From IMG/VR virus record IMGVR_UViG_3300011113_000415: a DNA stretch of 64,000 nucleotides. The stretch is one strand, 5' to 3'. Under the pieces are notes generated by a model. The model made no database searches and was not told where the DNA came from. It saw only the letters and a program-made list of their open reading frames with translations. This stretch comes from a virus. Its lineage: Duplodnaviria; Caudoviricetes. Below, piece after piece: positions 2 to 52,588 of the stretch. The position numbers and the translations under genes are program-made. Position 1 is the stretch's first letter, and every line of letters starts with the position of its first letter.

Positions 2-523
2 GATCCAGGCATTCCAGGTATCACCCGTCCTGATGTGGTGGCAGCATTAAATCTAGACTCTAGCAATCTACCCAACACTGTGCAGGTAGGAAGCATCACA
101 GTGGACGAAGACTATCGTGGTCGCGGCCTGGCCAAGGCCTTGTACGGCATTGTGTTGACCATCATGCGAAAGAATCTTGTGAGTGGTTCCGGTCAAACAC
201 CAGGTGGTCGTAAGAACTGGATGAGCCTGGCCACCATACCCGGAGTCGAAGTTCATGGACTGGTAAGAATTCCCAACCAAATCTTTGACCTAGAACGAAC
301 CGCCACAGTCTCTCCACAATGGAAGAAATACGCTGACCGAACCATGGATCAGATCATGCAACTGGGTGGGCAGTTCTACAGCAAAGATAATAATAGCACG
401 TATTGGTTGTTTGATGTTGTGCCCGGCAAAGGTCAACTACAACCTGCGGTGCGGAATTCACTCAGCCGGTTGTATGGCTATGATGCAGACAACCTGCTGT
501 TGGCCCGTTGGAGTGGAGCATGA
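2..523 (+). CDS. GNAT-like acetyltransferase domain protein (5'-truncated by window edge)
   Basis: Frame open to the window start; GNAT motif A-like VDEDYRGRGLAKALY; TGA overlaps next ATG (ATGA). Confidence 0.6.
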   Translation, partial: DPGIPGITRPDVVAALNLDSSNLPNTVQVGSITVDEDYRGRGLAKALYGIVLTIMRKNLVSGSGQTPGGRKNWMSLATIPGVEVHGLVRIPNQIFDLERTATVSPQWKKYADRTMDQIMQLGGQFYSKDNNSTYWLFDVVPGKGQLQPAVRNSLSRLYGYDADNLLLARWSGA

Positions 524-2475
524 GAGCACGAGAGTTTGTTAGAGAAACTGCTGTGGGGCATATTCTAACCCCACGATTTGAAATTGTAGTGGATGATCAT
601 GCCTTGGAACGTGCCCGAGAACGTGGTGTGGACCCTCAAGCAGTGGATTACATCATCAGGACTCAATTGCCCAAAGTATCACGCAAACTTGATCAAATTG
701 AAGTTAATCAAAAGTTTTGGGTATACGATTGGAGTCGCGAACTGGCCCTGGGCCTGCGTAGACTCAGTAGCACAGAGCCAAGATTTTTATTAAAAACTGT
801 GTGGCCTGGACGACCAGCCCGCACACCCGAAGCAGAACAGATCGTAAGCATCAATGAGTCAGTTGGTGCTGACCAAGTAATTATTTACGCCAATCACAAG
901 GGTGCCACAATAGATGACAGCATCAAGAACAGTCTGCCGGTGACCAACGTACCTGTAGATAAATTACAACTGTGGGAAAAGCATAAATCAATGCAGGACC
1001 CCAAAGTGGCTGACTGGGTCAATGACAAACTTTTACCAGAACTCAAACAAAATGGAAAGTTAAAGCCTTTGCTGGTGTGGAACAACCATGGCAAACTTTT
1101 TGTCATAGATGGCAATCATAGGCTGATAGCATATCAAGAGGCAGGATTCCAAGGCCGTGTGCCCGTACAAATAGTTCCAGACAATATGATTGCTGTTTCC
1201 CAAAAGGTGGCGGAAGGCAAAGAAAACAATGGGATTAGTTTTCAAGTACAAAAAGGAAAAAACAAATTTGCTACTACTTTAAGTATTGGTAGCGACCCAG
1301 TTGGAGTATACCAATATGATGCTGATACTGGTCGTAGCATCGCCGAGGTTTATCCAGAATTCAAAGGCAAAGGATTAGGTAAATTATTAGTTTTACATGC
1401 TATCTATACCGCGGCCAAATTGGGATTAGATTTCCAAGAAGATGAATCAAGAACCTCAGAGTATGACAATGTATTAGATAGCCTGAGTAGTAATGGTTAT
1501 ATTGTAGATGATGAAGGATATTGGTATGTCACAGGCGAAGGTGAACAGTTTCTAAAACAATCATTAAAGCAAGGTGTGGCGGAAAACATGAGTCATGACA
1601 AAGATGGTCGTGCTGTGGAGGAATTAAAATCAGCATTGCTGGCCAAACGTGATCAATTGCAATCAGCCACAGATGATCAAGTGTATGATATCATTGACAA
1701 GATAATGACACGTATTGCTCGTAGCCACAGTATCAGCGGACAAAAACTGCATGACATGTGGGTAGACAAGTATCGGCAAATTCCTGACACCTGGATCATG
1801 AATGAAAAGCAAGGTGTGGCAGCAGCCGTAAAAAATATACCTGTGTCTAAGACTATAAATGAAATAGCAATATCTGGAAGTCAATTGCCTGGCAAATGGA
1901 TATCAAATACAGATTACAATAAAGTGTATGAGTTCGGCACAGGAAAAAATAATTATCGTGCTCAATTCCAGATCGACAATGCTTACAATTATGACGATGA
2001 CGACGATGATGAAGTTGCAGACGGAAAAAGTATGTTTGCTTTTTTCCAGGCACAACTTCCTAACGGCACCTGGACTGATAATATTACAAATATCAATGAG
2101 CCAGACACTTTAAAGATTTATTCTACCATGGCTGGGCTAATACAACAAATTTTAAAATCTCATCCTGAAATTTCCAGTGTCTCTCTGTTTGGTCGTGAGC
2201 GAGTCAACAACATTTATCAGAAATTATTGCAACGTAATATTACCAAAGTTCTTCCAGGTTGGCAAGTTACCAGTCAGGGCATTGAGAGACTTGAACCCAC
2301 AATGGCCGAAAACTTTGCTGATGGCAAGGGCCCGGGTCGTCCAGGTGACAGCCAACGACATGGAATACCTAAAAAAGCCACCATGGCTGAACTGGAAAAA
2401 GCCGCACATGCCAAGGGCCGTAAAGGACAACTGGCCCGGTGGCAACTGAACATGCGACGGGGTAAAAAGAAATGA
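520..2475 (+). CDS. Multidomain putative virion internal polyprotein (ParB/Srx-like, GNAT-like and basic C-terminal modules)
   Basis: Start MRAREFVRE; ParB-like VIDGNHRL; GNAT-like PEFKGKGLGK; modules separated by KVAEG/QGVAE/TMAEN linkers. Confidence 0.6.
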   Translation: MRAREFVRETAVGHILTPRFEIVVDDHALERARERGVDPQAVDYIIRTQLPKVSRKLDQIEVNQKFWVYDWSRELALGLRRLSSTEPRFLLKTVWPGRPARTPEAEQIVSINESVGADQVIIYANHKGATIDDSIKNSLPVTNVPVDKLQLWEKHKSMQDPKVADWVNDKLLPELKQNGKLKPLLVWNNHGKLFVIDGNHRLIAYQEAGFQGRVPVQIVPDNMIAVSQKVAEGKENNGISFQVQKGKNKFATTLSIGSDPVGVYQYDADTGRSIAEVYPEFKGKGLGKLLVLHAIYTAAKLGLDFQEDESRTSEYDNVLDSLSSNGYIVDDEGYWYVTGEGEQFLKQSLKQGVAENMSHDKDGRAVEELKSALLAKRDQLQSATDDQVYDIIDKIMTRIARSHSISGQKLHDMWVDKYRQIPDTWIMNEKQGVAAAVKNIPVSKTINEIAISGSQLPGKWISNTDYNKVYEFGTGKNNYRAQFQIDNAYNYDDDDDDEVADGKSMFAFFQAQLPNGTWTDNITNINEPDTLKIYSTMAGLIQQILKSHPEISSVSLFGRERVNNIYQKLLQRNITKVLPGWQVTSQGIERLEPTMAENFADGKGPGRPGDSQRHGIPKKATMAELEKAAHAKGRKGQLARWQLNMRRGKKK

Positions 2476-39669: not shown

Positions 39670-40860
39670 TCAAACGTAAGGTTTGATCAATTCGTAAAAC
39701 TCAGGAAACGTAGATTCAAAAGACTGGTCGCGCATGCGATCTAAATCTTTTGTCATGTGCCAAAACCATTCCCAAGCATTTACATCATAGGATATGTATT
39801 CAGGTATACTTTGCATCATGAAATTAACTGTGGCAGTATCTTGAAGTATTTTTTCAGCGACTATTTTTTTCAATGACATTGGCATGTGTCGTATATCATA
39901 CTCAGGTGGACTGTAGACAAAATTACAGCCTACTATTATTCCAAATTTTGCTAAATTTTTTTTGATTTCATCAATATAAAATACATTTAGTGGTGTGACT
40001 GTGACACAGATGTTAATTTCTGTGTTGGGATGATTTGCGGTCCAGTCTTTGTAGCGTTGCAGATTTTCAAATACCACGTTAGCGTCAACTGGATATCTAA
40101 TATATTCAAGATGTTTGTGGACATGACTGTCTATGCTAATTCCAATTTTTACATATTTGTATTTGACCAGTGTGTCTAGATATGCTGGGTTCCATATTGT
40201 AGCATTGGTATGAAGTCTTAAACTAACTTTGGAACTCTTGCCAGCATCGGCCACTGTTTTTAATACACGAAACAACCCAGGTGTTAGGAATGGCTCACCA
40301 CCGTATATATCAAAAAACTCCAAGTTTGGTAACCATTGCTCCGTAGTCTCCCATATGGGATTATCTCTATCAAATGCAGATCTTATGCTTTCAAATCGTT
40401 TGGTATACTCTTGTTGTGTGCCTTTAAATCCATCGTGTTCTATCGCAAATTGATAGGCATTGTTATACCAACCTGTACTAGTGGCCGGATTGCACATTCT
40501 ACAGGCAAGATTACAAACGTTGCCAGGTTTCATAATCAGCACACGAGGCTGATCAGGCAATGACTCAAGATGACCAAACATGTGGTTGAATCGCTGTCTA
40601 CTACTGATTTTTCCACTGGCTTCTAGGTCCTGGCAAGGTCTGCAACTTTCAATGGTTTTTCCGTGGTCTAATCCAGCAGCCAACATTTTTCTAGTGGGAC
40701 TAGACCAGGCTTCAGCCAAGGTATTTTTGTCAGCAAACAGCACCTGTTGTTGACGATTGGTAAAACTCCAATTGTTTATGTTGCAGGCACAGAAGTCACC
40801 ATCGTTTTGAATGGCCAGGCCCATATGTGGCATCACACAAAAAGTGTCAGATTTAAGCAT
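39670..40860 (-). CDS. Radical SAM protein (SPASM/twitch-associated type), antisense inside the tRNA array
   Basis: CNLACRMC; N-terminal FCVMP...C...C motif; YGGEPF; HTNAT. Confidence 0.85.
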   Translation of the reverse strand: MLKSDTFCVMPHMGLAIQNDGDFCACNINNWSFTNRQQQVLFADKNTLAEAWSSPTRKMLAAGLDHGKTIESCRPCQDLEASGKISSRQRFNHMFGHLESLPDQPRVLIMKPGNVCNLACRMCNPATSTGWYNNAYQFAIEHDGFKGTQQEYTKRFESIRSAFDRDNPIWETTEQWLPNLEFFDIYGGEPFLTPGLFRVLKTVADAGKSSKVSLRLHTNATIWNPAYLDTLVKYKYVKIGISIDSHVHKHLEYIRYPVDANVVFENLQRYKDWTANHPNTEINICVTVTPLNVFYIDEIKKNLAKFGIIVGCNFVYSPPEYDIRHMPMSLKKIVAEKILQDTATVNFMMQSIPEYISYDVNAWEWFWHMTKDLDRMRDQSFESTFPEFYELIKPYV

Positions 40861-41975: not shown

Positions 41976-42050
41976 TGCCCCTTTAGTTTAAAAGTAAAAC
42001 AGACGCTTGATAAGCGTCAGTCGGAGGAGCGTTACCTCCCGGGGGTACCA
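41976..42050 (+). tRNA. tRNA-Ile(GAT), non-canonical T-loop
   Basis: Loop TTGATAA; T-loop AGCGTTA; CCA. Confidence 0.82.
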
Positions 42051-46181: not shown

Positions 46182-46649
46182 ATGAAAAAACTTGACCTAG
46201 ACCAAGTGAAAAATTATATACGGGCACAAACGCCCCAAACTGCTGTGTATCTTGGTTGCGACAGTGAACGTGTGAAAGTTCGCGGACGCTGGTATGCTGA
46301 CTATGCTTTGGCCATTGTGGTTCACATTGACAGTTGCCATGGTTGCAAAATCTTTGGCGAAGTTCAAAGAGAACTGGACTGGGATCAACGAAGTGATCGT
46401 CCCAGCATGAGACTCATGAACGAAGTATACAAAGTGGGTGACCTTTTTCAGAGTCTGGCAGATGTGTTGGAAGATAGATTGGTTGAAGTACACCTTGACA
46501 TCAATCCTGATCAAATGTACAAGTCAAGCATGGTGATCAATCAGGCCATTGGCTATATCAAAGGCACCTGCAATGTTACTCCCATGGTCAAGCCACTCTC
46601 TTTCGCGGCAAGTTACGCGGCGGACCGTTTACTTGTAGTTAACGGTTAG
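46182..46649 (+). CDS. RNase H-like YkuK/DUF458-family protein
   Basis: YLGCDS, RLMNEV, EVHLDIN, SFAASYAADR; TATAAATA upstream. Confidence 0.7.
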   Translation: MKKLDLDQVKNYIRAQTPQTAVYLGCDSERVKVRGRWYADYALAIVVHIDSCHGCKIFGEVQRELDWDQRSDRPSMRLMNEVYKVGDLFQSLADVLEDRLVEVHLDINPDQMYKSSMVINQAIGYIKGTCNVTPMVKPLSFAASYAADRLLVVNG

Positions 46650-47200: not shown

Positions 47201-47902
47201 TTACTTGACTGTGGCCAATCCAAGGTTCCGAAGAATACAAATGTACATCCAACCTATGTCAAACTCCCACCAGTTTCTACTGAGGCGAGCACTGGCTGGA
47301 TCCAAGTGGTGGTTGTTGTGTAGTTCTTCGCCACCAATCACGATACCCCAGGGACTGATATTTCTACTGAGATCTCGGGTTTCTCCATTTCTATAGCCCC
47401 ACCAGTGTGCTAGACCGTTGACGACACCAGCGGCCCAGAACGGTATCCATATTATCTGTATGAGCCAAATTATGGCGCCAACCCAACCAAAGAGCCAGAG
47501 GTTGAACACAAGGCAAATGCCAAGCCCAAGTCCGGAGTGAGGAGTGTATATGTTACGCTCCAACCAGTCACTAGGAGTGCCACGACCATATGTATCAACC
47601 ATGTCCGTATCTTTTGCGGCTTCATTGTATAACCATGCTCCTCGAAACAAAACTTGCCAGATTCCATACACATGTGGACTGTGCGGATCACCTGCCCGAT
47701 CACTGTATCTATGATGCTTGCGGTGTATGGCCACCCATTGCTTTGTGACCATGCCTGTTGTGAGCCACAGCCAGGTTCGCATGAAGTGTTCTATTAGGGG
47801 ATGAAATGTCACAGATCGGTGTGCTTGTGATCTATGCAAATACAGTGTGACGCAGGCTATGGTGATGTGTGTGGCGATTAAAGTGTATAGGAGTTCTGTC
47901 AT
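47201..47902 (-). CDS. Membrane fatty-acid (delta-9-type) desaturase
   Basis: Three His boxes HRSQAH, HRKHH, HNNHH. Confidence 0.92.
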   Translation of the reverse strand: MTELLYTLIATHITIACVTLYLHRSQAHRSVTFHPLIEHFMRTWLWLTTGMVTKQWVAIHRKHHRYSDRAGDPHSPHVYGIWQVLFRGAWLYNEAAKDTDMVDTYGRGTPSDWLERNIYTPHSGLGLGICLVFNLWLFGWVGAIIWLIQIIWIPFWAAGVVNGLAHWWGYRNGETRDLSRNISPWGIVIGGEELHNNHHLDPASARLSRNWWEFDIGWMYICILRNLGLATVK

Positions 47903-47991: not shown

Positions 47992-48067
47992 GCCCCTTAA
48001 ACTAATCTAGTGAAAGTGCGGGACTGAAAATCCCGAAAGCCAGGAGCGTAACCTGGAGGGGGCACCA
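47992..48067 (+). tRNA. tRNA-Phe(GAA), non-canonical T-loop
   Basis: Loop CTGAAAA; T-loop AGCGTAA; CCA. Confidence 0.82.
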
Positions 48068-48472: not shown

Positions 48473-48655
48473 ATGACCCGGACCTTGATTTGGGTGTTAT
48501 CGTTTAGTGTGCTGGGCCCTGTACCCGAAAGCGGAGAACTGGCCAAGTACAAAACTCAAGCAGAATGCGAACAAGCAAAAATTCAAAAACGCGAAGAGTA
48601 TCAGGCTCAGAAAAAACGCATTGTGGCCAGTTGTCATCCCAGCACCAAAGGTTGA
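48473..48655 (+). CDS. Small hypothetical protein
   Basis: Signal-like N-terminus; two Cys. Confidence 0.5.
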   Translation: MTRTLIWVLSFSVLGPVPESGELAKYKTQAECEQAKIQKREEYQAQKKRIVASCHPSTKG

Positions 48656-48680
48656 CAAACAATCAAAATAAATATATAAT
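48652..48680 (+). promoter_or_regulatory. Consensus sigma70 promoter of the permuted tmRNA gene
   Basis: TTGACA-17-TATAAT. Confidence 0.85.
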
Positions 48681-48686
48681 ACTGAG

Positions 48687-48751
48687 AACAGCGTAAACTG
48701 CGATTCAGAAAAGGATTCAAGACGGCGGGGCAGTGCCGCCCAGGTCCACCA
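48687..48751 (+). ncRNA. ssrA: tmRNA acceptor piece (permuted two-piece ssrA, transcribed first)
   Basis: GATTCAA helix-2 strand, GAC, T-arm GGCGG-GGCAGTG-CCGCC, CAGGTCC-A-CCA 3' end; 5' boundary approximate. Confidence 0.88.
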
Positions 48752-48763
48752 TAAGGAAGTTTG

Positions 48764-49132
48764 ATGCGTATTACTGAGATTGCTAATACAAAACTATCAT
48801 TTAAAACAACAAAAGGCAGTAATGCTATTGGTGTTGAAATGAACGTTGACGGGCAATACGCAGGGATGTTTCAATACGATGCAGGTAACGGAAGAAGTTT
48901 AGTAGAGTTAGATCCAGACTTTCAAGGCAAAGGTTTGGGTAAAATTCTAATACTAAAAGAAATCTATACTGCTATCATGTCTGGATTAGACTATGTAGAA
49001 GATGAGTCACGCACCCAAGCATTTGATAATGCTATGAATAGTTTGGCAGACGCTGGTTACATAGTCAATGATGACGAGTATTGGTATGTCACTAGTGAAG
49101 GTGAGCAATATCTCAAACAAGTTTCTTTATGA
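48764..49132 (+). CDS. GNAT-like module encoded in the tmRNA intervening segment
   Basis: AAGGAAG RBS; PDFQGKGLGK; about half of residues identical to the module at 1222-1566; TGA ends 1 nt before the tmRNA 5' end. Confidence 0.8.
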   Translation: MRITEIANTKLSFKTTKGSNAIGVEMNVDGQYAGMFQYDAGNGRSLVELDPDFQGKGLGKILILKEIYTAIMSGLDYVEDESRTQAFDNAMNSLADAGYIVNDDEYWYVTSEGEQYLKQVSL

Positions 49133-49133
49133 T

Positions 49134-49313
49134 GGGCCTGACACAGGATCGATTGGGTCAAGAGTAGGGATAGTGGCGCTCGGTAAGGTAGAAGCCGTTA
49201 GGGTTGGGAGTTCCCAGCCGAAGAAGCAAAAAAAGTAAAGGCAAACGACTCACAGTTCCAATTGGCCGCGTAAAGTAGCCTAGGGTAGGAAATACCTCGT
49301 AACAGAAACCACC
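49134..49313 (+). ncRNA. ssrA: tmRNA coding piece; tag (A)ANDSQFQLAA at 49241-49273
   Basis: 5' GGGCCTG pairs with CAGGTCC (G3:U70); TTGGGTC pairs with GATTCAA; resume codon GCA; 3' boundary approximate. Confidence 0.9.
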
Positions 49314-49314
49314 A

Positions 49315-49338
49315 AGGCCCGCTTCGGTGGGCTTTTTT
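49315..49338 (+). terminator. Intrinsic terminator after tmRNA
   Basis: GCCCGC-TTCG-GTGGGC followed by TTTTT. Confidence 0.85.
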
Positions 49339-49355
49339 CTTGGCTAAATATCGGC

Positions 49356-49940
49356 ATGATAGTTTATATTCACGGTGCCAGTGCCACTGCCGAAAGTTTC
49401 ACACACATAAGAGAATACGTTAGAGAGCATACAGAACTGCCAGACACTGCCTTGGAATACAAGAGCGATGATGGTTTTGATCATAACCTTGGCCGCATGA
49501 TGGGACAACTGGATGACGCTGAACGGCTGTTCTTTGTGAGTCACAGCCTGGGTGGTATCTATGCCTTGTGCTTGGCCAACCACTATCGTGATCGTACCTT
49601 GGGCGGGGTGAGTCTCTCAACACCCTATGGTGGAAGCAAACAAGCAGACTTTGCCAGATACTTTTTGCCATTCAATCAACTGATGAAAGACATTGGTACC
49701 ATGAGTGAGCCCATGGCCGAATCAAGACGACTACCAGCACCCCCACGTTGGACCAATGTTGTGACCACAGTGGGCGACAGTCCTTGGATAACCGAGCCCA
49801 ATGATGGCGTGGTCACACTGGCCAGCATGCGAGCAAGAAAAGACTTTGAACTGGTAGAACTGCCACTGAACCACTATGAAGTGGTACTCAGCAATCAAGT
49901 GGTGCGCTTGATCCTAGACAGAATCAATGGTGCCTTATGA
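49356..49940 (+). CDS. Alpha/beta-hydrolase
   Basis: YIHG, SHSLGG, NDGVV, late NH. Confidence 0.82.
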   Translation: MIVYIHGASATAESFTHIREYVREHTELPDTALEYKSDDGFDHNLGRMMGQLDDAERLFFVSHSLGGIYALCLANHYRDRTLGGVSLSTPYGGSKQADFARYFLPFNQLMKDIGTMSEPMAESRRLPAPPRWTNVVTTVGDSPWITEPNDGVVTLASMRARKDFELVELPLNHYEVVLSNQVVRLILDRINGAL

Positions 49941-50914: not shown

Positions 50915-52588
50915 ATGAAAAATAGATTTGAAGAACTTGAAACACTAGTATCAAAATTTACCAAACAACTACCCCCTGGCACACACTACGCCAACAGACT
51001 TGAGCAAGAACTAGAACTCATAGTTCAACTCAACTTTGCCAAACACTTTTTGCGTGTGAGAGAAATACTAGATCTCACCCAAGACATACCACACATCACT
51101 CGAGGTTCAGCAGGTTCCAGCCTGGTGTGCTGGATGATGGGCATAAGTGATGTGGATCCTGTGGCCGAACACATACCACTTTCACGGTTCATGAATCCGC
51201 GTCGTGACGATTTGCCGGACATTGATCTTGACTTCCCACACTGGCAACAGGAAGAAGTCATGAATCGCATATATCGACGCTGGCCCGGACAGAGTGCTAG
51301 AGTATCAAACTATGTGACCTACAAAGAAAAATCAGCACGTCGTGAAGCAGCCAAACGCCTGGGTGCCGAAGGCCGGTTGGATCGCAACTTTCGCTTTGAA
51401 GATGTTGTGCCCGACTATGTGGCAGATGCTGAACGACTCACAAACAAGTTGCTGGGCAAGAAACGTTGTATATCAAAGCACTGTGGTGGCATATTGATTT
51501 TTGATCGACCAGTGCCGCCCAGTTTGATCAATGGTGAAAATCAAATCTTGTTGGACAAGTATGAGATTGAAGATCTAGAACACTTCAAGATCGACATTTT
51601 GGCCAATCGTGGTTTAAGTCAACTGTGGGAAATAGACCAGCGTGACCTGTTGGACTACCCTGAGCAGGACGAAGCCACTGCTCAACTGCTTGGTAGTGGC
51701 AATGTGCTGGGTGTGACACAGGCTGAGTCACCGGCCATGCGACGCCTGTTTCGAGCCATAAGGCCACAAAGTCGTGCTGACTGTGTGTTGGGCACTGCAC
51801 TCATACGCCCGGTGGCCACACAAGGGCGCAGGCGAGCCAGTTTCTTTCAAGACTGGTCAAAAGATCGTTTTGAAGATACCATTGTGTTTGAAGACGATGC
51901 CATAAGACTCATTGCCGACATCTTGAACTGCGATGAGTACACAGCCGACATGTGGCGTCGTGCGTTTGCCAAAAAGAACGAAGAAAAAATGTTTGAGTTC
52001 ATGACCTTGGTGGGTGATCATCCCCGGCGTGATGATGTGTTTGCCGCACTACGAGAACTCAGTCACTTTGGCTTGTGTCGTGCTCATGCCATCAACCTGG
52101 GTAGGTTGATCTGGGCCTTGGCCTATCAAAAAGCACACAACCCTATCAAGTTTTGGCAGGCCGCACTCAAGCACTGTCAAGGTAGTTATGCTAGATGGGT
52201 GTATTGGCAAGAGGCCAAACTGGCCGGTGCGGTGCCTGCCTTGATCGAAGGCAACGAAGTGGCAGACCTGGCTGCCACCGGGCGTTGGCAGTCACCACGA
52301 TTTATTCCGGTATGTCAGGAAATACGCAGGCCCGGAGAAGTGGAATTTTGTGGCTTGGTGGCCAACTATCGTGTGTTCAAGAGTTCGCCCAAAGAGTACA
52401 TTACCTTTGTGACCCTGGGCACAGGCAATGGTCGATATTTGGATGTGGTTGTGCCACGTGCCATGAGTTTTCAAGAACATCCAATCTTGTGGGGAATGGG
52501 CAAATTGGACTACAAAAACAACACAGAATATGTTATACTTAAACGTCATAAAAGACTACGATTACAAGAAGTTGCTCACATACAATGA
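50915..52588 (+). CDS. dnaE: Truncated DNA polymerase III alpha-like protein (no PHP domain)
   Basis: RGSAGSSLV, PDIDLDF, SKHCGG, KIDIL, FGLCRAHA, C-terminal OB-fold-like segment. Confidence 0.85.
   Translation: MKNRFEELETLVSKFTKQLPPGTHYANRLEQELELIVQLNFAKHFLRVREILDLTQDIPHITRGSAGSSLVCWMMGISDVDPVAEHIPLSRFMNPRRDDLPDIDLDFPHWQQEEVMNRIYRRWPGQSARVSNYVTYKEKSARREAAKRLGAEGRLDRNFRFEDVVPDYVADAERLTNKLLGKKRCISKHCGGILIFDRPVPPSLINGENQILLDKYEIEDLEHFKIDILANRGLSQLWEIDQRDLLDYPEQDEATAQLLGSGNVLGVTQAESPAMRRLFRAIRPQSRADCVLGTALIRPVATQGRRRASFFQDWSKDRFEDTIVFEDDAIRLIADILNCDEYTADMWRRAFAKKNEEKMFEFMTLVGDHPRRDDVFAALRELSHFGLCRAHAINLGRLIWALAYQKAHNPIKFWQAALKHCQGSYARWVYWQEAKLAGAVPALIEGNEVADLAATGRWQSPRFIPVCQEIRRPGEVEFCGLVANYRVFKSSPKEYITFVTLGTGNGRYLDVVVPRAMSFQEHPILWGMGKLDYKNNTEYVILKRHKRLRLQEVAHIQ

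Follow-up and report, generated by a model that had tools for sequence, protein, structure and literature searches.

A protein gene in the spacer hairpin of a permuted two-piece tmRNA gene of a giant freshwater phage

That phages encode two-piece tmRNAs is already published. Of 133 unique phage tmRNAs in an ARAGORN-based survey, 53 were of the two-piece form, and such genes have been described from pelagimyophages and from the Methylophilales phage Melnitz, whose ssrA is of the alpha type and has a glutamine riboswitch (PMC9004378). The same paper mentions neither the intervening segment nor a gene within it, and in the literature we found no description of genes in the spacers of phage two-piece tmRNAs. 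For permuted genes in general, the 2025 database of 97,179 tmRNA sequences lists a tRNA-Ala and a repetitive element as unusual spacer contents, with no protein gene among them, and singles out a tRNA gene in one spacer as a unique feature (PMC11915505). Intron-form tmRNA genes represent a different case; in 36 of 883 of them the group I intron carries a LAGLIDADG homing endonuclease gene (PMC11915505). Among ribosomal RNAs, the 23S rRNA intervening sequence of Coxiella burnetii and Leptospira carries the S23p ORF, and the paper on it states that results suggest that S23p is not made (PMC4990558).

The locus considered here lies in a stretch of 64,000 nt of viral DNA (the window) from a giant (jumbo) freshwater phage, with a contig of up to 335 kb, which encodes a circularly permuted two-piece tmRNA. 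We think it quite probable, taking the explanation as a whole, that the tmRNA precursor carries a real GNAT-like gene in an ancestral spacer hairpin, that this hairpin is a generic slot for cargo genes and that translation of the cargo is followed by processing of the RNA.

The permuted tmRNA gene and its class

All features lie on the plus strand. The pre-tmRNA has a sigma70-type promoter with a 12/12 consensus match (TTGACA-17-TATAAT, 48652–48680), and in relatives L001, L004, L009 and L011 a promoter stands in the corresponding place, its spacer differing in sequence. The acceptor piece, that is, the 3′ part of the tRNA-like domain, occupies 48690–48751 (positions 1–63 of the Rfam model RF04321) and ends in ACCA; its 5′ end is approximate, the transcript probably starting near 48687. 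Within it lie the 3′ strand of helix 2 (P2, 48714–48720), which forms 7 covarying base pairs with 49153–49159, and the T arm (48724–48740), for which both the Rfam alignment and the precursor fold give a 5-bp stem and the loop GGCAGUG. The piece closes at 48741–48751 with the 3′ strand of the acceptor stem (CAGGUCC, 48741–48747), the discriminator A and the encoded CCA (ACCA, 48748–48751). The coding piece (49134–49309), supported by Rfam alignment and covariation, begins with the 5′ acceptor strand GGGCCTG (49134–49140) and continues with the helix 2 strand (49153–49159), further P2 strands (49168–49171 and 49176–49180), the PK1 hairpin (49181–49197), the tag frame ANDSQFQLAA, from the GCA resume codon at 49241 to UAA at 49271–49273, and a 3′ tail up to 49309. 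An intrinsic terminator follows (9-bp stem and T run, 49314–49335 or 49314–49338), and at its position the relatives also have a hairpin and a T run, of different sequence.

The match to RF04321 (tmRNA_permuted) at 48690–49273 covers the full model (1–213) and, with 80.2 bits (gathering score 47; E = 9.7e-14 over the whole window), is far above chance. The order is permuted: the 5′ acceptor strand, helix 2, PK1 and the tag frame come after the T arm, the 3′ acceptor strand and the CCA; standard gene order was seen in only 4 of about 120 viral relatives. In the unconstrained fold of the 652-nt precursor, 48741–48747 pair with 49134–49140 with a probability of at least 0.98. More distant ORF-bearing relatives show compensatory changes in this stem, A6:U67 in L254 and C6:G67 in L257, with G3:U70 kept. 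The alanine identity set is present, comprising G3:U70 (G49136 paired with U48745), the 7-bp acceptor stem and the discriminator A48748. Across 102 distinct relatives P2, the T arm and the PK1 hairpin covary: helix 2 is paired in 95–102 of them with up to four Watson–Crick pair types per position, and positions 2 and 3 of the T-arm stem alternate between CG, GC, UA and AU. Canonical tags, such as ANDSQFALAA and ANDEQFALAA, are encoded by 111 relatives. A first-pass annotation, which had seen the letters alone, had read this gene as a phage-borne permuted two-piece tmRNA with a perfect promoter, a 3′ piece ending CAGGTCC-A-CCA at 48751, an alanine G3:U70 pair, a 7-bp helix 2 and the tag followed by a terminator, and on each of these points it was right.

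Its assignment of the gene to the alphaproteobacterial type did not hold. The alpha model (RF01849) gave 47.1 bits, below the cut-off of 50, and the beta model (RF01850) gave still less, so that among these models the window passes the general one only. Relatives L045, L127 and L011 pass the alpha model (54–65 bits) and L071, L028 and L044 the beta model (103–134 bits); those that share the acceptor stem of the window pass the beta model, and chromosomal genes of Cupriavidus have the same acceptor stem, leader and tag style. The annotation had also proposed a check with Infernal and ARAGORN. The general permuted model gave the positive answer reported above, the alpha and beta models remained below cut-off and ARAGORN called no tmRNA in the window. 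This miss is explained by a spacer-length limit of the tool, which on other loci called permuted genes with spacers of up to 211 nt and none with 284, 373 or 382 nt. ARAGORN-based phage surveys may accordingly undercount such genes and label their cargo as ordinary hypothetical proteins, since the tested spacers of 284 nt or more went uncalled.

A search of 48600–49400 by blastn against 50,697 deposited phage genomes returned zero matches, and between the window and L001–L013 no flanking gene is common at the DNA level and hardly any at the protein level. A pattern search for the acceptor stem in 185,579 species retrieved mostly standard tmRNAs of many phyla and is not diagnostic of the host; among these matches only the permuted genes of Cupriavidus resemble the phage type. 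No SmpB gene was found in the records of five relatives, three of them complete genomes, which implies that the SmpB of the host would be needed.

The spacer hairpin and the processing of its transcript

Between the two pieces lies a segment of 382 nt (48752–49133) that the alignment to the Rfam model shows as an insertion and that would be absent from the mature two-piece RNA. It is filled by the cargo gene ORF122 (48764–49132; ATG at 48764, stop codon TGA at 49130–49132), which encodes the 122-aa GNAT-like protein P0001. The annotation's description of a spacer occupied by an ORF with its own ribosome-binding site, whose stop lies 1 nt ahead of the 5′ piece, was accurate, a single base (49133) separating the stop from G1 of GGGCCTG. 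This spacing is not peculiar to ORF122: in 82 of 93 distinct spacers, ORF-less ones included, the leader reads TGAT (67) or TAAT (15). The segment is closed by a stem of 12 bp (−6.5 kcal/mol) in which 48752–48763, with the Shine–Dalgarno sequence AAGGAAG at 48754–48760, pairs with 49118–49129, the last four cargo codons (Q V S L). The stem is part of the unconstrained minimum-free-energy fold of the whole precursor, with pair probabilities of 0.96–1.0 for the first 7 pairs, and in this most stable fold the Shine–Dalgarno is thus paired; the same fold joins A48748 to U49133, C48750 to G49131 and A48751 to U49130, so that the conserved leader UGAU (49130–49133), which provides the stop codon, lies opposite ACCA. 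RNase P is expected to cut after 49133. In the 93 distinct spacers the stem covaries at 10 positions and 92% of pairs form in register, versus 59–64% when shifted; trailer positions +1 to +10 pair with leader positions −5 to −14 in 75–99% of the spacers, with many double changes. Unrelated cargo ORFs of L022, L131, L034 and L139 share the ending VSL. The intervening segment is the ancestral hairpin of permuted tmRNA genes with an ORF placed in its loop, and ORF122 borrows the signals of that hairpin: the 5′ strand of the closing stem serves as Shine–Dalgarno, its 3′ strand as the last four codons and the UGAU leader as UGA stop.

In lake metatranscriptomes, contigs of relatives cover the coding piece with a summed depth of 250–2950, a figure that pools many phages and may include DNA carry-over. 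One contig of 438 nt reaches from the end of the acceptor piece through the ORF to G1–G7. In other contigs adaptor sequence stands directly behind 49306 and 49309, which hints at a mature 3′ end near these positions, the data being assembled contigs that carry no strand or end information.

From this anatomy we infer a single transcript, the order of translation and processing and the enzymes involved. One promoter would most likely yield a precursor of about 650 nt containing the acceptor piece, the 382-nt segment, the coding piece and the intrinsic terminator. Since only 12 nt lie between the CCA and the ATG and a scan of the spacer found no terminator-like site, ORF122 would hardly be transcribed except within the pre-tmRNA. 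Ribosomes may load on the nascent transcript while the Shine–Dalgarno is free, its partner strand being made only about 370 nt further on, or they may melt the weak closing stem. As long as a ribosome occupied the last codons or the stop, neither the closing stem nor the acceptor helix could form. When this stretch is vacated, a stack of about 23 bp could arise from the acceptor helix, the ACCA–UGAU pairs and the closing stem; RNase P would then cut before G49134, and trimming of the 3′ end to the CCA at 48751 would leave two base-paired pieces able to work with AlaRS and SmpB of the host.

The reverse order, in line with the coupling to tmRNA maturation that the first-pass annotation proposed, can also be envisaged. 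The ORF might remain silent in the precursor and be translated mainly after RNase P and 3′ processing have freed the spacer as a monocistronic mRNA, in which case protein output would report tmRNA maturation. Sequestration of the Shine–Dalgarno by the closing stem in the folded precursor would fit such a scheme, as would processing sites that bracket the ORF almost exactly. However, excision alone would not free the Shine–Dalgarno, since both strands of the closing stem lie within the excised RNA; the released RNA would end 1 nt past the stop codon, and in some relatives (L071 type) the cargo ORF lacks an in-frame stop ahead of G1, so that cleavage would turn it into a non-stop frame. We consider this scheme rather unlikely; co-transcriptional ribosome loading is at least as likely as release-coupling.

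It is less probable still, to the point of being distinctly doubtful, that the nesting is mere genome packing, the upstream promoter serving the acceptor piece and the ORF, and an internal one the coding piece, in separate transcripts. A weak promoter-like site (9/12) does exist inside the ORF at 49043–49072, but it falls within coding sequence, and relatives have a degenerate version of it (AACGAT); the spacers of ORF-less relatives, 29–60 nt long, are too small to hold a promoter. Moreover, neither the covariation of the closing stem nor the pairing of ACCA with UGAU across the spacer would make sense unless both sides belonged to one RNA.

Cargo exchange and the nature of the protein

Permuted tmRNA genes were found in at least 115 related viral contigs, with spacers of 29–382 nt. 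The spacers yielded 28 ORF clusters, of which about 17 have a Shine–Dalgarno and a stop at −1 or −12, ORFs that extend into the coding piece from spacers shorter than about 87 nt being counted as spurious. A survey of related phages for cargo ORFs in the same spacer, suggested by the first-pass annotation, thus revealed about 17 unrelated small genes, or none, in this place, and the layout is not unique, recurring with many unrelated kinds of cargo. All 12 cargo-bearing loci tested pass RF04321 (79–135 bits). The cargo of L127 is a DUF2061 protein and that of L047 a CxxCxxCC protein, both above the Pfam cut-offs, and ORF122 is the largest cargo among the related genes examined. Among themselves, ORF122 carriers have tmRNA backbones of 69% identity, but these backbones reach 91–98% identity with genes that have other cargo or none. 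Likewise, complete relatives with an 80% identical DNA polymerase have spacers of 76 and 98 nt and no homologue of the ORF122 protein; no DNA polymerase was found in the ORF122 contigs, which are fragments without that region. The slot is generic, and its cargo changes without regard to the tmRNA backbone.

Over 11 loci, mean pairwise identity is 94% in the spacer versus 55–74% in the flanking tmRNA parts. That the ORF is better conserved than the tmRNA, and that ARAGORN gives no call, would be expected if the tmRNA gene were a decaying relic, disrupted by a gene insertion, of which only the protein gene matters. We regard this as very improbable, because insertion into the spacer loop leaves both mature pieces whole, compensatory changes maintain the pairing of all helices, every carrier has G3:U70 and the tag frame, promoter and terminator are retained and the ARAGORN miss reflects the length of the spacer.

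ORF122 is a true gene under purifying selection (dN/dS 0.17), as the first-pass annotation had supposed in speaking of a full protein gene; variable columns are distributed 17/12/51 over the three codon positions, and there are 58 close homologues and 139 distant representatives. The idea of a chance open frame in a non-coding spacer, which has nothing but the unusual location in its favour, is refuted by this dN/dS value and third-position excess of changes, by the same domain in 139 representative proteins elsewhere and by a confident fold prediction.

The AF2 model of the protein (pLDDT 89, pTM 0.83) suggests a small acetyltransferase-like protein with a GNAT-like fold. GNAT structures head three fold searches (AFDB E = 2.7e-5; VIA Z 6.5–8.2 over 85–115 residues), the matches being middling (TM about 0.5, Z at most 8.2). 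The model has a beta-sheet core and a QxxGxG loop before a long helix, which would be in line with the GNAT superfamily: the motif FQGKGLGK (residues 53–60) lies between strand 4 (44–49) and helix 3 (58–72), and its G57 and G59 are nearly invariant or invariant. Unlike typical GNATs, the protein has 122 aa only and, according to the model, no counterpart of helices alpha1–alpha2. No Pfam GNAT model matches P0001 itself, whose sole Pfam match is a sub-threshold HTH_45; in the distant homologue P0159 the corresponding region does match Acetyltransf_1 (26.4 bits, cut-off 20.7). The C-terminal helix-hairpin-helix resembles a winged helix, with MarR-type matches to residues 56–122. PHROGs contains no family for ORF122, for the upstream 60-aa ORF or for the cargo of L139 and L104. 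An acetyltransferase activity of the protein is putative.

The domain also occurs as a module in many multi-domain proteins of phages, one of them in the window, where residues 240–351 of a 655-aa protein are 53% identical to ORF122. Standalone or fused homologues occur in other phages without a nearby tmRNA, and no tmRNA was found near the distant homologues of 188–208 aa (L016–L020); the domain is therefore not tied to tmRNA. As the slot is generic and its cargo is exchanged independently of the backbone, the ORF122 protein is probably an accessory module, of host-takeover or anti-defence type, that uses the tmRNA promoter, rather than a tmRNA cofactor. A TacT-like action on tmRNA or aminoacyl-tRNA was considered and rejected: its sole support is a fold match of rank 47, and the variety of unrelated cargo speaks against it.

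It is tempting to speculate that the loop of the spacer hairpin is a site for exchangeable gene cassettes, which would pass from phage to phage by recombination at the near-invariant arms of the acceptor and closing stems, and that cargo translation gates tmRNA maturation: while the last codons or the UGA are occupied by a ribosome, the closing stem and the acceptor helix would be held apart and RNase P blocked. The locus would then switch in time from cargo protein to tmRNA. We put this forward tentatively, as a possibility that may well prove wrong.

Comparison with known systems

What is new in the phage locus is that the spacer is an ancestral hairpin with an ORF in its loop, that ribosome-binding site and stop derive from the hairpin and its leader, that the cargo varies and that it moves independently of the backbone. 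The intervening segment of permuted tmRNAs is usually treated as a discarded linker; here it would be a working messenger for a selected protein, and across related phages it is a hot spot of gain and loss of unrelated small genes. Hairpin strands that provide a ribosome-binding site and a stop offer a simple route from a structured RNA spacer to a gene slot, and the locus may represent a natural case in which translation competes with the folding or processing of a stable RNA on one transcript. ORF122 encodes a minimal GNAT-like domain, found as a module in large multi-domain proteins of phages as well, and is a candidate for a role in host takeover or anti-defence.

Among chromosomal genes, the permuted tmRNA of Cupriavidus (Betaproteobacteria, RF01850) has the same order of acceptor piece, spacer and coding piece, an identical acceptor stem (GGGCCUG/CAGGUCC) with G3:U70, an encoded ACCA, the leader CUUCUGAU, a stem-closed spacer and tags of the ANDxxFALAA type. 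Its spacer is a 32-nt hairpin without ORF, whereas that of the phage has 382 nt and a 122-codon gene in the loop; furthermore, the window gene is phage-borne, with no SmpB gene found in relatives. Melnitz and the pelagimyophages likewise carry a permuted ssrA downstream of a promoter on an aquatic phage genome (PMC9004378).

Intron-form tmRNA genes resemble the locus in that a protein gene sits within a tmRNA gene but is not part of the mature RNA. In that case, however, the insert is a self-splicing intron of the T loop, after whose removal the exons are joined again, and its ORF encodes a selfish endonuclease (PMC11915505). The window tmRNA has an uninterrupted T loop, no Rfam intron family matches 48600–49400 even at E up to 10, Pfam finds no endonuclease domain in ORF122 and the RNA would stay in two pieces. 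The S23p intervening sequence is likewise stem-closed and excised from the precursor of a stable RNA, with an ORF inside and a mature RNA in pieces (PMC4990558). There the RNA is an rRNA and the ORFs belong to a single family, whereas the cargo of the phage tmRNAs is under clear purifying selection and of many kinds.

The tmRNA gene and its relatives

Inspection of 48500–49500 recovered every element of the two-piece permuted tmRNA gene described by the first-pass annotation. The promoter it had called perfect matches the sigma70 consensus at 12/12 positions (TTGACA-17-TATAAT, 48652–48680), and the promoter/terminator scan placed the terminator, a 9-bp hairpin, at 49314–49335. The Rfam model RF04321 (tmRNA_permuted; gathering score 47) matches end to end at 48690–49273 with 80.2 bits (E = 9.7e-14); in this alignment an insertion of ~360 nt separates ACCA from GGGCCUG. 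As had been read from the sequence, CAGGUCC (48741–48747) pairs with GGGCCUG (49134–49140) in an acceptor stem with the alanine G3:U70, the discriminator A48748 is followed by an encoded CCA, and the tag ANDSQFQLAA runs from GCA at 49241 to UAA at 49273. The ORF said to fill the spacer with its own ribosome-binding site is likewise present, from ATG 48764 to TGA 49130–49132 with AAGGAAG upstream; its product has 122 aa (P0001; hereafter ORF122). ARAGORN reported 24 tRNAs and no tmRNA in the window. This is a limit of the tool, since at other loci it called permuted genes with spacers of at most 211 nt and none with spacers of 284, 373 or 382 nt. Two Rfam tRNA matches without ARAGORN calls (43.9 and 43.6 bits; plus strand, 41977–42047 and 47992–48064) both lie immediately 3′ of tRNA-Arg genes.

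Relatives were found with a pattern combining the T arm with CCAGGTCCACCA, which returned at least 120 viral contigs; the acceptor stem is held constant by this pattern. Among the matches listed, 115 contigs have the permuted form (GGGCCTG..TCGA downstream) and four the standard form (GGGCCTG..TCGA ~385–495 nt upstream). The 102 distinct genes among the matches listed pair the 7-bp helix 2 in 93–100% of cells, with up to four Watson–Crick pair types per position, and covary also at T-arm positions 2 and 3 and in the PK1 hairpin; canonical tags, e.g. ANDSQFALAA and ANDEQFALAA, occur in 111 genes among the matches listed. Distant ORF-bearing relatives reached via the protein have A6:U67 (L254) or C6:G67 (L257) and keep G3:U70, and RF04321 is passed by 12/12 cargo-bearing loci tested (79–135 bits).

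Lake metatranscriptome contigs derive from relatives, with depth summed over many phages, and show presence in RNA libraries, nothing more; in them the coding piece (49216–49311) has a summed depth of 250–2950 and ORF122 of ~10–20, and one 438-nt contig covers 48739–49140. In such contigs (X18, X20) an Illumina adaptor directly follows 49306 and 49309, hinting that the coding piece has its mature 3′ end shortly before the terminator hairpin. No SmpB gene was found in three complete relatives, and host SmpB would therefore be needed.

The closing stem and expression of the spacer ORF

With or without an ORF, spacers end alike: in 93 distinct spacer ends among the matches listed, the last four bases are UGAU in 67 and UAAU in 15. 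Trailer positions +1 to +10, counted after CCA, pair with leader positions −5 to −14, counted back from G1 of GGGCCTG, in 75–99% of these ends, pairing being 92% in register versus 59–64% when shifted by one. Double changes are abundant (e.g. +5/−9: GC 30, CG 28, AU 16, GU 8, UA 7). This covariation, together with the conserved UGAU, indicates that the spacer is a hairpin that continues the acceptor helix by way of ACCA/UGAU. The window's closing stem has 12 bp (48752–48763 with 49118–49129, plus strand; −6.5 kcal/mol). In an unconstrained fold of the 652-nt precursor the T arm forms, the acceptor stem bridges 393 nt with P of at least 0.98, and the first seven pairs of the closing stem have P 0.96–1.0. 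ORF122 lies in the hairpin loop; the 5′ strand of the closing stem doubles as its Shine–Dalgarno sequence and the 3′ strand as its final four codons (QVSL). Its stop lies 1 nt from G1 because it is the conserved UGA of the leader and, the last codons being the 3′ strand, unrelated cargo ORFs in L022, L131, L034 and L139 likewise end in ...VSL.

The locus has a single strong promoter, one terminator after the coding piece and 12 nt between CCA and ATG; a scan of the window found no terminator-like site inside the spacer. The pre-tmRNA itself would serve as the messenger for ORF122; ribosomes would load most easily on the nascent transcript, before the partner of the Shine–Dalgarno sequence has been made. 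A ribosome occupying the final codons or the UGA would cover the 3′ strand of the closing stem and G1–G7, so that the acceptor helix could not form. Once this stretch is clear, the helix stack would form, RNase P would cut before G49134 and the 3′ end would be trimmed to CCA. Alternatively, ORF122 could be translated only after release of the spacer. The excised spacer would, however, be a panhandle RNA with the Shine–Dalgarno sequence still paired, and for this reason we rank this possibility below co-transcriptional loading.

Another arrangement is seen in a 101-nt spacer (L071, L091, L096, also L024 and L038), where a conserved ORF for a CxxC peptide (31 codons, good Shine–Dalgarno sequence) has no in-frame stop before G1, the first one being 27 nt inside the coding piece. 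Cleavage by RNase P would turn this ORF into a non-stop mRNA, a substrate of tmRNA itself.

The cargo protein and its exchange

ORF122 occupies the same position in 13 IMG/VR loci (86–90% amino-acid identity); a dN/dS of 0.17 over 14 copies, with 17, 12 and 51 variable columns at the first, second and third codon positions, shows that the protein is under purifying selection. Homologues of 188–208 aa (63–66% identity) are ordinary genes on other phage contigs, adjoining a giant DUF5661 protein and a LysM/GH19 protein, and no tmRNA was found near them on the contigs checked. An exhaustive profile search gave 139 representative proteins with the ORF122 domain, mostly multi-domain proteins of 200–1000+ aa in which it is one module; partners include deaminase, nucleotidyltransferase, DUF6934 and DUF6321 domains. 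The window's own 655-aa ParB-like protein (508–2475, plus strand; PHROG 1033 in the N-terminal part) carries a GNAT-like module at residues 240–351, 53% identical to ORF122, and seems to belong to the multi-domain, polyvalent-type phage proteins that usually house it.

With an AlphaFold2 model of ORF122 (51-sequence alignment; pLDDT 89.3, pTM 0.83), GNAT acetyltransferases came top in all three fold searches: Foldseek against the PDB (E ~1e-2, TM ~0.5), AFDB clusters (E = 2.7e-5) and VIA-align (Z 6.5–8.2 over 85–115 residues). Residues 56–122 also resemble winged-helix proteins. FQGKGLGK (residues 53–60) occupies what we take to be the position of acetyl-CoA pyrophosphate binding in GNATs, and Pfam Acetyltransf_1 matches the same region of a distant homologue, P0159. 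We call the product a minimal GNAT-like protein, with acetyltransferase activity predicted.

Permuted genes among the matches listed have spacers of 29–382 nt; those above ~87 nt usually start UAAGGA... and contain an ORF. Spacer ORFs among the matches listed cluster into 28 groups, ~17 of which have a Shine–Dalgarno sequence and a stop whose last base is precisely at −1 or −12 relative to G1. The cargo includes membrane-like peptides of 23–42 aa, unrelated proteins of 101 and 119 aa and, with Pfam families, a DUF2061 protein (72.6 bits) and a CxxCxxCC protein (29.4 bits). Immediately ahead of the window's tmRNA promoter lies a 60-aa ORF (48473–48655, plus strand) with 54% identity to the spacer cargo of L134 (436–612) and 78% to an ORF upstream of the L011 tmRNA, suggesting that one small gene can be found either within the slot or beside it. 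Two short contigs (L255, 1–638; L256, 1–515) encode a 126-aa ORF122 homologue (75% identity), then TGAT and a coding piece starting GGGGGTG; the homologue overlaps an upstream 73-aa ORF in place of the acceptor piece, and the spacer may hold two genes.

Among ORF122 carriers the spacer is 94% identical, as against 74% for the acceptor piece, 55% for the P2/PK1 part and 69% for the tag; their backbones, the tmRNA outside the spacer, are 69% identical among themselves (minimum 51%). Backbone identity is 98% between L002 and L139 (119-aa cargo), 97% between L003 and L111 (86-aa cargo) and between L012 and L108 (37-aa cargo), and 94% between L009 and L041 (67-nt spacer). No shared neighbouring genes were found among the carriers, and complete relatives with an 80%-identical polymerase have spacers of 76 and 98 nt and no ORF122 homologue. 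From these contrasts we infer that gain, loss and exchange of cargo are uncoupled from the tmRNA backbone and happen over short times. Since the cargo varies and ORF122 homologues occur elsewhere, the protein is probably an accessory module that makes use of the tmRNA promoter, not a tmRNA cofactor.

Besides the ParB-like protein and an array of 26 tRNAs, the window encodes an exonuclease and a family B DNA polymerase (PHROG 262); most of the window's proteins have no PHROG match. Accessory genes around the tRNA/tmRNA region encode a 557-aa DnaE-like polymerase fragment (50915–52588, plus strand; PF07733, PF17657), a fatty-acid desaturase (47201–47902, minus), a radical SAM/SPASM protein (39670–40860, minus) and a YkuK-type RNase H-like protein (46182–46649, plus). 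The stretch occurs in lake, river and freshwater metagenomes and viromes, and the longest contig with the exact ORF122 sequence has 334,901 bp. Identity to the window's DNA polymerase is 80% in complete IMG/VR relatives of 342 and 353 kb, one of which has terminal repeats, and 63% in one of 383 kb. Given the sample types, the relatives' sizes and the polymerase identity, the window belongs to an uncultured freshwater jumbo phage; deposited phages gave no DNA-level match to the tmRNA region. A related phage contig has an ARAGORN tRNA call labelled Pyl (L034, 5061–5137; anticodon CUA), which may be an amber-suppressor tRNA.

Lineage of the tmRNA and known systems

All that the first-pass annotation observed held, and its interpretation stood in part. 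Its alphaproteobacterial type is not supported: alpha is the best older Rfam model for the window, at 47.1 bits, below the cut-off of 50. Some relatives that share the acceptor stem exceed the beta_tmRNA threshold (L071 134, L028 113, L044 104 bits), and others that of the alpha model (L045 65, L127 64, L011 54 bits). Across 185,579 bacterial species the same 3′ end belongs mostly to standard tmRNAs from many phyla; 6 of the 10 permuted genes with it are from Cupriavidus. These have a 32-nt spacer with trailer GAAGCAC and leader CUUCUGAU, score 281 bits with the beta model and encode ANDEKFALAA, a tag also present in the phage set. The phage family looks derived from the betaproteobacterial two-piece type. 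Two Bacteroidota-binned MAG contigs, L145 (Crocinitomicaceae) and L160 (Haliscomenobacter), carry beta-type permuted genes (beta_tmRNA 152 and 110 bits) with trailer and leader resembling the phage kind, L160 also having several tRNA genes; both are probably phage sequences that were binned with bacterial genomes.

Phage two-piece tmRNAs are themselves published: by ARAGORN they make up 53 of 133 unique phage tmRNAs, mostly aquatic (PMC9004378), in a paper from which the word 'intervening' is absent. A 2025 database with 11,946 permuted and 79 phage sequences (PMC11915505) calls a tRNA-Ala in one spacer a 'unique feature', notes a repetitive element in the longest gene and reports homing-endonuclease genes only in group I introns of intron-form tmRNA; PMC4131195 mentions neither unusual spacer contents nor intron homing-endonuclease genes. 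No paper on protein genes in tmRNA spacers was found in the open-access literature. At the window locus, the spacer hairpin of a permuted phage tmRNA serves as a gene slot. New here are the largest cargo among the related genes examined (122 aa, GNAT-like), its paralogue within a multi-domain protein of the same phage, a closing stem that accounts for both ribosome-binding site and stop, numerical evidence of cassette-like exchange and the reason why annotation tools miss such genes. The nearest analogue in another stable RNA is the Coxiella 23S rRNA intervening sequence with its ORF (PMC4990558).
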